From Candidatus Saccharimonadota bacterium (lineage in GTDB: Bacteria; Patescibacteriota; Saccharimonadia; Saccharimonadales; Saccharimonadaceae): a DNA stretch of 64,000 bases. The notes under the pieces are model-generated. The model made no database searches. It was not told the DNA's origin and saw only the letters and a program-made list of their open reading frames with translations. The translations under genes were made by a program, and so were the position numbers. Of this stretch, positions 44,866-59,745 are shown piece after piece (the stretch's first letter is position 1; each line of letters opens with the position of its first letter). Location of the stretch: NCBI GenBank assembly GCA_028289065.1, contig JAQGHA010000016.1, positions 77,460 through 141,459 of the forward strand, read 5' to 3'.

Positions 44866-44941
44866 GCCGTTATAGCTCAGCTGGTAGAGCGGCGCTTTCG
44901 TAAAGCGCAGGCCTCCGGTTCAATCCCGGATAACGGCTCCA
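44866..44941 (+). tRNA. tRNA-Thr(CGT)
   Basis: Cloverleaf, anticodon loop TT-CGT-AA, discriminator T, CCA. Confidence 0.95.
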
Positions 44942-48026: not shown

Positions 48027-48548
48027 CTAAGGAGAGACTTCAGCTTCTGTATTAGCTTCATAAGGCCTAACAAATAAACAGATTTCATTGGGTAGGTTAT
48101 GGGGTAGGTCACGGAGCTGTTCATTACTGAAGATTCGGTTATGCGTATCTAGGGCTGATTCGTCATCACGAAGACTCCAGCGAGAGTCCCATCCCGGCCC
48201 TGGTTCCATAGGGCCATCATCACCTCCGTCCATGTAGAAAGTATGAGAATAATATTGTCGGTATGTGTACGGAACGTCTTCGTACATTCTTTGGCCTTCT
48301 TTCCATACTAAACGAGAGTAGTAACTGGGGTTTAAGCCGAACTTTACGCCATCACGTTCAAAAATTTGACCAGCTTTAGGGCCTTCGGTTTCAGCCGAAG
48401 TACTTTCTGTACTGGCGCCTTGTGCTGTAACCGGACCTTCGACTAACTTTTGAGCCGCTTCAGTAAATGCGATTTCAAGAGGAGTAGGGGTCTGCCGTAG
48501 TGTTGGAGACTCCGTCGAGTAATTCGTACTGTTTTCATCTTCAAGCAT
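48027..48548 (-). CDS. Hypothetical protein (173 aa)
   Basis: ORF with TG-a-TATACT upstream; low-complexity N-terminus, Tyr-rich core. Confidence 0.65.
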   Translation of the reverse strand: MLEDENSTNYSTESPTLRQTPTPLEIAFTEAAQKLVEGPVTAQGASTESTSAETEGPKAGQIFERDGVKFGLNPSYYSRLVWKEGQRMYEDVPYTYRQYYSHTFYMDGGDDGPMEPGPGWDSRWSLRDDESALDTHNRIFSNEQLRDLPHNLPNEICLFVRPYEANTEAEVSP

Positions 48549-48618
48549 AATTGTAATGCCAGTATATCATTTCAGGGCTAGCGACTATAGTCTATTACGA
48601 CCACCTAACACCATTACA

Positions 48619-48800
48619 TGCTATAATTACTTCAAGTATTGACGCGGCCTAACCATCCGCCGAACTTCGTGGATGTTATCTGTGCGTAAACGGATATCAC
48701 AAGTAAAACGTCCGGTGGAACCGTCTACCCAGTAGACCCGAGACATGCAATTGAAGAGTTTAAGTATATTAAACCCGACATTGCATGTTTCTTTTAATTT
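48619..48800 (+). promoter_or_regulatory. Promoter and T-box-type riboswitch leader of thrS
   Basis: TG-c-TATAAT 48619-27; GTCCGG-[TGGAACC]-GTCTAC-cca-GTAGAC-CCG-a-GAC antiterminator; competing GAGACATGCAA/TTGCATGTTTC stem plus T-rich tract. Confidence 0.7.
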
Positions 48801-48815
48801 AACGAGGAGAGAATA

Positions 48816-50630
48816 ATGAGCAACGATGAACAACTACACGCCATGCGCCATAGCTTGGCCCACATCACTGCTAGCGCTGTTAAAAAGCTTTGGCCAGAGG
48901 CTAAATTTGGTGTTGGCCCGGTGGTAGATAACGGTTTTTATTACGATATTGATTTGGGTGAACTGAAGATATCTGAATCAGATTTTAAGCGGATTGAAAA
49001 AGAAATGCGCGGTATTGTGAATCAAGCCCAAGAATTTGAACACTTTGATATGCCAATCGACCAAGCGATTGATTGGGCCCGCCAAAATGGCCAACCGTAT
49101 AAGGAAGAGCTTTTGAATGATTTAAAGCGTTCCGGCACAACCATCGCTAAAGACCTCGACGTTAGCGAACTTGGTTTGGCAACTGACGGTGAATCAGCTG
49201 TTGAAACAGTATCATTCTATAAGAATGGTGACTTTGTTGACCTCTGTCGTGGCCCTCACGTTGCTAATACTAAAGACGTAGGTGCTTTTAAGTTGCAACG
49301 CGTGGCTGGTGCCTACTGGCGTGGTAAAGAGGGGAACCCTCAGATGCAACGCTTGTACGGAGTAGCTTTTGAAACCAAGGAAGAACTGGATGAATACCTG
49401 GTTCGTATGGAAGAAGCGAAACTTCGCGACCACCGTAAACTTGGTAAAGAACTCGACCTTTACACCGTATCGCCATTAGTTGGCCCTGGTTTGCCGCTAT
49501 TTACCCCACGTGGGACGGTTTTGCGTGACATTATGAGTACTTACTCTAACCAATTGCGGCAACGCTACGGTTTTCAGAAAGTATGGACTCCACACATTAC
49601 TAAGAAGGAGCTATACGAGACTTCTGGGCACTGGGCTAAGTTTGGCGATGAGTTATTTCTCGTTACTAGCCAAGAAACCAGCGACAATTTCGCCCTTAAG
49701 CCAATGAACTGCCCGCACCACACCCAAATTTACGCATCATCACCACGAAGCTATAAAGATATGCCGGTGCGATTCTTGGAAACAACTACTGATTACCGTG
49801 ATGAAAAGACCGGTGAACTCGGTGGCCTTAACCGCGTGCGTTCATTAACCCAAGATGATAGTCACGTATTTGCGCGCCCCGACCAAATTGAACAGGAAAT
49901 TAATAATTTGCTGGCATCCGCCCGTGAACTGTATGCAACGATTGATATGAAGCTGCGGGTGCGCCTTTCCTATCGTGACGGCGGAGAAGGCTACTTAGGT
50001 GATATCAGCCTCTGGGAGACAGCGCAAGCCCAATTAAAGCAAGCTGTACTGGCTAATGAGCTGGATTACTTTGAACAAGACGGCGAAGCGGCTTTTTATG
50101 GCCCAAAAATTGACTTCATGGCCACCGATGCGATTGGCCGCGAACACCAAGTTGCCACTGTGCAGCTGGACTTCGTGCAGCCGCAACGTTTCGGTTTAAC
50201 GTACACTGACGCCGAAGGTAACGCTGCCCAACCAGTCATGATTCACTGCGCCCTGCTTGGTTCAATTGAACGCTTCTTGAGTGTCTTTATTGAACACACC
50301 GCTGGTTGGTTCCCATTCTGGGCGGCCCCGGAACAATTACGTATTTTGACGATTAACGACACCGTATTAGATTACGTGGATGAGATTAAAGCGGTATTAA
50401 ATGAAACTGTTTTAATGCAACCAGTTCGTTTCAACGAAATTCGCTTTACCGTCGATGATCGCAACGAATCACTTGGTAAGAAAATCCGTGAAGCTGCCAA
50501 AAACAAGATTCCGGTACAGCTAATTGTTGGCCAACAGGATAAAGATGCTCGCGAAGTCAGCGTACGCACACAAAAGGGTGAAGAAAAAGTATCGCTTGAT
50601 ACCCTAGGCGAATACCTAAAGGCAATCTAA
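48816..50630 (+). CDS. thrS: Threonine--tRNA ligase (no N-terminal TGS domain)
   Basis: RHSLAH editing motif, DLCRGPH, RDHRKLG, KPMNCPHH, FYGPKIDF, GSIERF. Confidence 0.98.
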   Translation: MSNDEQLHAMRHSLAHITASAVKKLWPEAKFGVGPVVDNGFYYDIDLGELKISESDFKRIEKEMRGIVNQAQEFEHFDMPIDQAIDWARQNGQPYKEELLNDLKRSGTTIAKDLDVSELGLATDGESAVETVSFYKNGDFVDLCRGPHVANTKDVGAFKLQRVAGAYWRGKEGNPQMQRLYGVAFETKEELDEYLVRMEEAKLRDHRKLGKELDLYTVSPLVGPGLPLFTPRGTVLRDIMSTYSNQLRQRYGFQKVWTPHITKKELYETSGHWAKFGDELFLVTSQETSDNFALKPMNCPHHTQIYASSPRSYKDMPVRFLETTTDYRDEKTGELGGLNRVRSLTQDDSHVFARPDQIEQEINNLLASARELYATIDMKLRVRLSYRDGGEGYLGDISLWETAQAQLKQAVLANELDYFEQDGEAAFYGPKIDFMATDAIGREHQVATVQLDFVQPQRFGLTYTDAEGNAAQPVMIHCALLGSIERFLSVFIEHTAGWFPFWAAPEQLRILTINDTVLDYVDEIKAVLNETVLMQPVRFNEIRFTVDDRNESLGKKIREAAKNKIPVQLIVGQQDKDAREVSVRTQKGEEKVSLDTLGEYLKAI

Positions 50631-51227
50631 ATGCGAAGCTTGGTCATTGCGATTGATTGTGATGATGTACTCGTGGCTACCACGCCATACTTTATTAGTG
50701 CGTATAATAATGCCTTTGGTACGAAAGTATCGGTGGCACAGTCGCGTGACGAAAGTGAAGAAATTTGGGCTGCCTCTCGCGACCTTCGCTTAGAACGGCT
50801 TGATGAGCTTACGAAAACCGATGAATATTTCAAAATAGCGCCAACTTCTGAAGAAAGCGCAGTGCTGCAAGAGTTATCGAGTGACCATTCACTCCACTTA
50901 GTAACGGCGCGTCGGCGAGAGGAACACGAGCGAACGAAGCGTATGATCGACCGGGATTTACCGGGTGTATTCACTTCACTGGACTTTGGTGGAACAGATG
51001 GATCGAAAGGCGAAGTCTGTCAGCGTATTGGCGCTGATGTACTTATTGATGATAGTATTTATAACTTTGAAGATGCTCTGCAGCGAGGCATGACTAAGGC
51101 TGACATGATACTGTTCGGTGACTACCCGTGGAATACGGATATCCCAGAGTCGCTTGAAGGAATACGGCGTTGCCGAGATTGGGACGAAGTAAGAGAGGCG
51201 GTCTATGACATTGCCAACGCTGAATAA
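50631..51227 (+). CDS. HAD 5'(3')-deoxyribonucleotidase-like protein 1
   Basis: AIDCDDVL, LVTAR, LIDDS. Confidence 0.8.
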   Translation: MRSLVIAIDCDDVLVATTPYFISAYNNAFGTKVSVAQSRDESEEIWAASRDLRLERLDELTKTDEYFKIAPTSEESAVLQELSSDHSLHLVTARRREEHERTKRMIDRDLPGVFTSLDFGGTDGSKGEVCQRIGADVLIDDSIYNFEDALQRGMTKADMILFGDYPWNTDIPESLEGIRRCRDWDEVREAVYDIANAE

Positions 51228-51843
51228 ACGACCGAAAAATCGGCAGAAAATTGCCATCGACATTGATGATGTACTTGCTGATAATGCAACTGGTTTTGTT
51301 AACTTTAGCAATAAAACCTGGGGCACTACATTGCAACCAGAAGATTATCATGAGCATTGGATGGAACTTTGGAACGTTGATCTAGTGGAAGCTGAGCGCC
51401 GTGCGATTATACTCACTAACGCGTCAATTTTTAAAAACTATACGCATGATGAAGCAGCGCTGCCGGTTCTGAAGCGATTGAGCGCTGATTACGACTTATG
51501 TATTGTTACTTCGCGCCGAGAGCATACTCGGGATGATACGCTCGCCTGGATCCATCAACATTATGAAGGTTTATTTAACGATGAGACTATTCATTATGCG
51601 GGTATTTGGGACAAGGGGATTACGCTCAGCGGTCTTAGCCTAACAAAGGCGGATGTTATTGCGCAGCTCGATGCCGATTATTTAATTGACGACCAATTGA
51701 AACACTGCGAAGGTGTGGCCCAGACTGGGCGTAAAGCACTATTATTCGGTAATTATAAATGGAACCAAGTCGATGAGCTTCCGAGTGGTGTTACTCGTGT
51801 GAATGATTGGGCGGCAGTCGAGGAACATTTTTATGGTAAATAG
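51205..51843 (+). CDS. HAD 5'(3')-deoxyribonucleotidase-like protein 2
   Basis: AIDIDDVL, IVTSR, LIDDQ, YKWN. Confidence 0.82.
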   Translation: MTLPTLNKRPKNRQKIAIDIDDVLADNATGFVNFSNKTWGTTLQPEDYHEHWMELWNVDLVEAERRAIILTNASIFKNYTHDEAALPVLKRLSADYDLCIVTSRREHTRDDTLAWIHQHYEGLFNDETIHYAGIWDKGITLSGLSLTKADVIAQLDADYLIDDQLKHCEGVAQTGRKALLFGNYKWNQVDELPSGVTRVNDWAAVEEHFYGK

Positions 51844-59409: not shown

Positions 59410-59740
59410 GGTAGTCAGCTAGACGACCGCTTGCCTTAAAAACAAGAGGAAAGTCCGGGCAGCGCAGGATACGACAGTTGCTAACGGCAACCGGGGGAAA
59501 CCCTAGGGAAAGTGCCACAGAAACAAAACCGCCTAGTAATAGGTAAGGGTGAAATGAGTGGGGTAAGAGCCCACAGCGTCATATGGTGACATATGGAGAA
59601 GGTAAACCCTGTTGGCTGCAAGGAGATTGGTAGTAGAAGAGCGATCCGTTCGCCAGTCGATACCCGCTTGAATGTATCAGCAATGATATATCTAGATAGA
59701 TGGTCGTCCACGACAAAACCCGGCTTACAGGCTGGCTGCC
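59410..59740 (+). ncRNA. rnpB: RNase P RNA (type A)
   Basis: GAGGAAAGTCC, AGTGCCACAGAAA, GGTAAGAG, ACAAAACCCGGCTTA; P1 GGTAGTCAGC/GCTGGCTGCC. Confidence 0.96.
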
Positions 59741-59745
59741 GAATA

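Follow-up and report, generated by a model that had tools for sequence, protein, structure and literature searches.

Does the short RNA leader that precedes thrS in this Saccharibacteria genome sense tRNA, and if so, by what kind of architecture? The gene lies at positions 48816..50630 of the window (the whole 64,000-nt stretch of DNA that was analysed; coordinates refer to its + strand unless stated otherwise) and encodes a threonine--tRNA ligase of 604 aa. Its product carries the Pfam domains tRNA-synt_2b, tRNA_SAD, and HGTP_anticodon, and its identity is given by NCBIfam TIGR00418 (608 bits, with a cut-off of 384). Two consecutive, slightly overlapping genes of the NT5C family of 5'-nucleotidases adjoin the 3' end of thrS (50631-51843, +) and are possibly co-transcribed with it. 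A preliminary description of this DNA proposed a minimal T-box with a short Stem I upstream of thrS; the antiterminator, bulge, alternative stem, and tRNA features that it listed were all found where it had placed them. It also recommended a search with the Rfam T-box model, which did not bear it out: RF00230 gave no match at the leader at its gathering threshold (93 bits), nothing even at E ≤ 10 on positions 48500-48900 with permissive filters, and none at the thrS genes of 41 relatives. Rfam does identify an ordinary bacterial class A RNase P RNA at 59411-59743 (+, 250 bits). The bare motif GGTGGNACC occurs in 3 copies in the window, where 1.16 are expected, a number not beyond chance; the other two copies are located inside open reading frames and do not match the covariance model described below. 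Because the bare motif stands at chance level and Rfam is silent, only comparative evidence could settle the case.

The leader begins with an extended -10 promoter box, TGCTATAAT (48619..48627), from which transcription would probably start near 48633-48635. A promoter consensus scan that required a -35 box returned no match at the leader. Of 71 leaders, 65 have a TATAAT-like box (at least 5 of 6 positions) that precedes the C-stem by 3-8 nt, and 33 of those 65 also carry TGn. Since the -10 box lies 6 nt upstream of Stem I, the RNA would start at the K-turn, and a long Stem I could not be accommodated 5' of it, in agreement with the earlier observation that a canonical long Stem I is lacking. 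Stem I measures 34 nt in all (48634..48667) and comprises the C-stem AAGU/ACUU (48634-37 with 48664-67), a 3-nt bulge (48638-40), a tandem G.A/A.G (48641-42 with 48662-63), an unpaired N.N position (48643 with 48661), and a 4-bp stem GCGG/CCGC (48644-47 with 48657-60) topped by a 9-nt apical loop, CCUAACCAU (48648-56). By its GA motif, the base of Stem I appears to be a K-turn. The apical loop holds the putative specifier, the threonine codon ACC followed by a conserved purine, A (48652..48655, with ACC at 48652-54). The preliminary description had instead regarded a CATCC/GGATG hairpin as the remnant of Stem I and, having noted this ACC immediately 5' of it, preferred the ACT in its apical loop. 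That hairpin is 72.7% paired among relatives versus 73.3% in shuffles, 408 of 500 shuffles being as good, and both assignments were abandoned in favor of the Stem I and ACC codon given above. A second hairpin that it reported, TATCTGT/ACGGATA, is real and corresponds to one helix of a pseudoknot.

This compact H-type pseudoknot, which resembles Stem IIA/B, directly follows Stem I (48668..48696). It consists of helix a (CGUG/UGCG, 48668-71 with 48683-86) and helix b (UAUCUG/CGGAUA, 48677-82 with 48691-96), and an F-box-like GCGUAAA is located after helix a (48684-90). A purine-rich linker of 13 nt, UCACAAGUAAAAC (48697..48709), occupies the place of Stem III. The antiterminator (48710..48744) is composed of helix A1 (GTCCGG/CCG-a-GAC, 48710-15 with 48738-44, in which A48741 is bulged), the 7-nt T-box bulge UGGAACC (48716-22), helix A2 (GTCTAC/GTAGAC, 48723-28 with 48732-37), and the loop CCA. 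The intrinsic terminator (48740..48799) pairs 48740-50 with 48781-91 in an 11-bp stem and 48758-63 with 48769-74 in an inner helix; the stem is followed by TTTTAATTT, and the U-tract is UUUUAAUU. The segment GAGAC (48740-44) is common to the 5' arm of the terminator and the 3' strand of A1. The thrS Shine-Dalgarno sequence, read as GAGGAG (48804..48809), lies outside the terminator stem.

The leader is conserved well beyond its own species. When 41 relatives were searched by BLAST, about 19 species of its genus matched at 71-87% identity, and weaker matches in other families are likewise located upstream of thrS. Among 90 distinct thrS upstream regions, GGTGGAACC is present exactly in 72, at 80-170 nt 5' of the start codon, and the close variants GGTGGAACA or GGTGGAGCC in 4 more, while 9 have no leader at all. 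These nine Saccharimonadales loci (L053, L046, L049, L064, L073, L086, L096, L098, and L109) have a -10 box about 10 nt before the ATG and adjoin a divergent tRNA-Val gene; the T-box has been lost or never gained at these genes, and their mRNA may be leaderless. The structure was written by hand and examined on a MAFFT alignment of 30 leaders that had not been fitted to it. In this alignment 95.1% of the cells are paired, a share that falls to 81.4% on shuffling and to 31-50% when the register is slid, and 19 of 31 pairs display compensatory change; none of 500 shuffles reaches any of these measures. A2 covaries at 5 of 6 pairs, and A1 is invariant in this set. A covariance model built from the same alignment was then used to align 98 elements from several classes, with 95.0% of the cells paired versus 73.6% in shuffles and compensatory change in 26 of 27 pairs (5 of 6 in A1 once other classes are included), counts that are biased towards the structure by the fitting. 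The preliminary description would have been undone by a bulge that relatives do not conserve, and it had called for covariation and a conserved threonine codon in aligned thrS leaders. UGGA is present in the bulge of 98/98 elements, the full UGGAACC in 94/98, and the codon is equally constant, as detailed below. It is conservation that lifts the element above chance, and together with covariation it supports a minimal, short-Stem-I T-box on thrS in a Saccharibacteria genome.

A regular expression for the complete parse of Stem I (C-stem, bulge, tandem GA, N.N, stem, and 9-nt loop) fits 65 of 72 leaders. In the 30 MAFFT-aligned leaders, all 4 of 4 pairs of each Stem I helix covary and pairing reaches 99-100%; in the 98 sequences, the two helices are 97.7-99.2% paired. 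The loop triplet is ACC in 82, ACU in 12, ACG in 3, and ACA in 1 of the 98 aligned elements; hence a threonine codon followed by a purine (A or G) is present in every loop, and variation is confined to the wobble position.

The pseudoknot is supported to a different degree in its two helices. Helix b displays compensatory change in 5 of 7 pairs. Helix a is 94% paired but varies little, with 2 of 4 pairs invariant, and its varying pair is U-A, U.G, or C-G, never C-A; read by eye, its position is occupied by CAUG/CAUG in class C leaders and by CACC/GGUG in other Patescibacteria classes. The layout parallels the IIA/B domain and F-box (GCGUUA) of an ileS T-box in the same genome, and by this analogy the pseudoknot may be homologous to Stem IIA/B and its F-box. 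The linker has a conserved consensus, CAYAAGUAAAA, and class B relatives have a hairpin inserted at its position. By analogy with T-boxes covered in a review (PMC7583486), the linker may contact the duplex formed between the tRNA NCCA end and the bulge.

Two further parts of canonical T-boxes, besides the long Stem I with its elbow platform, were not found. A Stem II S-turn helix (GAA/AGUA) is not recognizable in the 42 nt between Stem I and A1, 29 of which form the pseudoknot. The linker does contain an AGUA (48702-05) lacking a conserved GAA partner, and a non-canonical equivalent of the S-turn that involves this AGUA is conceivable. According to direct length counts of the 98 elements, there is no room for Stem III in 49, including the element in the window, and a Stem III-like hairpin is present in 29. 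[quoted passage not shown]

The covariance model has one match in this genome, the thrS leader. Of 201 genomes of the order, it finds the element in 108 (84 of 152 genera), almost always as a single copy; in a phylum-wide sample of 401 genomes, it matches 35, of which about 20 belong to other classes. The element precedes thrS at 102/102 loci compared among relatives and at 20 of 21 distant loci that were fetched; at distant locus L165, the examined stretch stops short of the element. Eighteen distant loci with an apical specifier loop carry threonine codons, and two (L183 and L184) have an apparently longer Stem I. One element of the same minimal design is located before a putative GlyRS gene, identified by eye, in another Patescibacteria class (L170:1513-1605, minus strand; G493:C7:10112-10204); its apical loop contains GGA and its bulge UGGA. 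The minimal architecture may therefore not be limited to threonine.

As the matching tRNA, the preliminary description pointed to tRNA-Thr(CGU) in the window (44866..44941, +; detected by ARAGORN and Rfam), whose UCCA end indeed fits the bulge; its anticodon reads ACG, and by anticodon the cognate would be tRNA-Thr(GGU). The 3' end does not discriminate, as all three threonine isoacceptors end in UCCA and so fit the UGGA bulge. In this genome and five relatives the threonine tRNAs end in GGCUCCA, so that the bulge UGGA faces U73. With default settings ARAGORN reports only tRNA-Thr(UGU) and tRNA-Thr(CGU) in the genome, and a validated pattern search of the genome for an intact GGU isoacceptor returned no match. 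It was considered that tRNA-Thr(GGU) might be absent and ACC might face the UGU anticodon through a C:U wobble, but this was rejected on finding the gene split by an insertion outside the window (G000:C6:107241-107518, +; L159:142-419). The split was revealed by BLAST with the gene of G003, whose leader has the highest identity among the relatives, and ARAGORN with the -i option parses it as tRNA-Thr(ggt) i(37,202), the joined exons ending in UCCA. Matching both the ACC specifier and the UGGA bulge, tRNA-Thr(GGU) is the predicted cognate tRNA.

The 202-nt insertion follows U36, begins after U, and ends in G. Rfam Intron_gpI matches it weakly (14.9 bits, E 0.29); the core AAGAUACAGUCU lies within this match, and UAAGAUACAGUCUAG agrees with the Intron_gpI consensus, by which the insertion would be a group-I-like intron. 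An intact tRNA-Thr(GGU) gene is present in 36 of 41 relatives. G010 and G024 have homologous insertions of 80-88% identity at this site, and so does G006, where ARAGORN parses the gene differently; these are three of the four relatives without an intact tRNA-Thr(GGU) gene.

The expression platform looks like that of a transcriptional switch. The drawn fold of the isolated 35-nt antiterminator is its minimum-energy fold (-10.0 kcal/mol), and the terminator alone is predicted at -20.6 kcal/mol. Over the 90-nt platform, the terminator conformer reaches -27.6 kcal/mol versus -22.6 for the antiterminator conformer, a gap of 5 kcal/mol. As the terminator conformer is more stable, the default state would be off. 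Of 73 leaders, 69 have a hairpin plus U-run that adjoins or overlaps the A1 3' strand, the overlap with A1 being underestimated in the count because UUUC of the 3' arm was clipped. Judged by eye, the terminator arms covary. The presence of the terminator in 69/73 leaders and the position of the Shine-Dalgarno sequence outside the stem are the grounds on which the switch is read as transcriptional.

It could be argued that the T-box acts on translation, by governing ribosome access, like the actinobacterial short-Stem-I ileS T-boxes. All described T-boxes with an apical-loop specifier are mainly translational (PMC7583486, PMC10482949), and the minimum-energy fold of the full leader pairs CUUCGU (48665-70) with the Shine-Dalgarno region, a pairing that the centroid fold does not contain. 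Furthermore, the thrS leaders of one lineage (L101, L103, L104 (806-1010), and L110) have no terminator, and their GGUGGAACC segment is predicted to pair with the Shine-Dalgarno/AUG region (AGGAGGUUCUAUG); this predicted pairing suggests that the lineage possesses a translational version of the same sensor. In the window, however, the alternative helix runs straight into UUUUAAUUU, and the Shine-Dalgarno sequence, 13 nt past the stem, is left free by the centroid fold. The prevalence of the hairpin and U-run among the 73 leaders, and a terminator-to-Shine-Dalgarno distance that differs by tens of nucleotides among relatives, also speak against translational control, which is unlikely for this leader.

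Two further explanations would dispense with tRNA sensing altogether. In E. coli, thrS is subject to autoregulation through tRNA-like anticodon-arm mimics, and an operator bound by the ThrRS protein would likewise suit a leader that precedes thrS and has a conserved hairpin loop near its 5' end. Yet the loop holds a codon (ACC, ACU, ACG, or ACA) rather than an anticodon-like NGU, for which reason mimicry of this type was rejected, and its variation at the third position only is what would be expected for pairing with an anticodon. Such an operator would also leave unexplained the invariant UGGA bulge that matches UCCA, the overlap between antiterminator and terminator, and the recurrence of the same design with GGA in its loop before the putative GlyRS gene; a protein operator is accordingly very improbable. 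Still harder to credit is a constitutive or otherwise regulated terminator that resembles a T-box by chance, a reading that could appeal to the unremarkable frequency of GGTGGNACC in the window and the silence of the Rfam model. The motif, bulge geometry, K-turn, threonine codon, and terminator overlap are conserved jointly in more than 100 genomes of many families, and the compensatory changes add to the comparative data that disfavor it. Attenuation by a leader peptide is unlikely by inspection, as the sole AUG-started frame (48746) has no Shine-Dalgarno sequence and lies inside the terminator loop.

Taken together, sequence and comparison make it very likely that the leader is a T-box that senses uncharged tRNA-Thr and controls thrS by antitermination. 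Transcription would start at about 48634, right at the K-turn stem, and the apical-loop ACC (48652-54) would pair with the GGU anticodon of tRNA-Thr, while the K-turn and the IIA/B-like pseudoknot would orient the remaining RNA. The bulge UGGA (48716-19) could then pair with the free 3' UCCA of an uncharged tRNA, which would help the antiterminator (48710-44) to prevail over the stronger terminator (48740-91 and the U-tract) and permit read-through into thrS. Charged tRNA-Thr would be unable to stabilize the antiterminator, and transcription would stop at about 48795. Without an elbow platform and an S-turn, binding of the tRNA may be weak or may need a helper. A protein of the L7Ae family (PF01248) is not detectable in the whole genome, whereas a control search matches 7 of 14 reference genomes; the family is thus missing although the genome carries two T-boxes that contain K-turns.

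T-boxes have been divided into four classes (PMC10482949). [quoted passage not shown] Binding of tRNA is augmented by the platform, the S-turn, or both (PMC10482949). According to structural work on T-boxes, the codon-anticodon contact needs this reinforcement, and T-boxes of the terminator type depend on the platform to bind tRNA quickly (PMC7583486, PMC10482949). Hallmarks of the family as a whole include a Stem I with a basal K-turn, a codon followed by a purine, and a 7-nt bulge (PMC7583486). As judged from its sequence, the thrS leader fits none of the four classes, because it combines a Stem I and pseudoknot of class III with a terminator of the class I/II type. The evidence leans somewhat towards the view, taken as a whole, that Saccharibacteria and other Patescibacteria possess a fifth T-box class, in which a terminating RNA with a 111-nt core captures tRNA-Thr without platform or S-turn, and about half of whose members, the one in the window among them, lack Stem III.

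If this view is correct, it contradicts a working rule by which T-boxes that act co-transcriptionally depend on a long Stem I to capture tRNA rapidly, and the leader would be the smallest natural tRNA-sensing RNA. A natural and widespread terminator-type T-box with neither platform nor S-turn would directly test the reinforcement and platform rules, and would offer a minimal scaffold for structural and engineering work. The element also shows that T-box regulation is present in the candidate phyla radiation, where it escapes standard annotation (Rfam, and hence the TBDB class I set). The TBDB class I set was built with RF00230, and its class II model was applied to Actinobacteria only (PMC7778990), so that these leaders would be missing from TBDB. 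In a literature search of incomplete coverage, no paper on T-boxes in Saccharibacteria, TM7, Patescibacteria, or CPR was found. In addition, the C-ending specifier persists without an S-turn (82/98), which bears on the published explanation of that rule by the S-turn; part of the pseudoknot or the AAGUAAAA linker may serve as a substitute.

Among known systems, the closest resemblance in Stem I is to class III, the actinobacterial ileS T-boxes of Nocardia farcinica and Mycobacterium tuberculosis. Both have a basal K-turn, a very short Stem I without platform, a purine 3' of the apical specifier, a pseudoknot of the IIA/B type that contains an F-box-like sequence, and a discriminator with a UGGN bulge. 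Class III T-boxes, in contrast, need an S-turn Stem II, none of which is recognizable in the thrS leader, and retain Stem III, a part of the canonical discriminator that is absent from the thrS leader of this genome. They are mainly translational, whereas the thrS leader of the window ends in a terminator and U-tract and leaves its Shine-Dalgarno sequence free, and they differ in amino acid, loop length, and host (Ile specifier, 5-6 nt, and Actinobacteria, as opposed to Thr, 9 nt, and Patescibacteria). With class I (RF00230; e.g., B. subtilis tyrS and thrS), the leader shares the A1/A2 antiterminator with its UGGNACC bulge, an antiterminator 3' strand that doubles as the 5' arm of an intrinsic terminator, an aminoacyl-tRNA synthetase gene as target, and the preference for a C-ending specifier. 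Class I differs in its long Stem I with a distal elbow platform (IDTM), and RF00230 is silent on the leader. Class II glyQS T-boxes are likewise transcriptional and without an S-turn Stem II. They keep the long Stem I, the platform, and Stem III, however, their whole Stem II domain being replaced by a linker, and they are specific for glycine, with three G-C codon-anticodon pairs, whereas the thrS leader lacks the platform and keeps the pseudoknot.

An instructive comparison is provided by the genome itself, which has a second T-box before a GNAT acetyltransferase gene (189 aa) and ileS (G000:C15:12537-12707, minus strand; L112:3538-3708). RF00230 aligns to it end to end with 32.4 bits, under the 93-bit cut-off, and similar sub-threshold matches occur in 7 relatives. 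In this ileS leader, the U-run follows a helix that apparently forms between a downstream segment and the 3' strand of Stem III rather than A1. Like the thrS leader, the ileS T-box has a K-turn, an ultrashort Stem I with an apical codon (UUAUCAC, that is, AUC followed by A), a IIA/B pseudoknot (F-box GCGUUA), and a UGGN bulge (UGGUACC). Unlike the thrS leader, it retains Stem III as well as a Stem II that contains GAA/AAGUA, and thereby shows what the thrS leader has lost.
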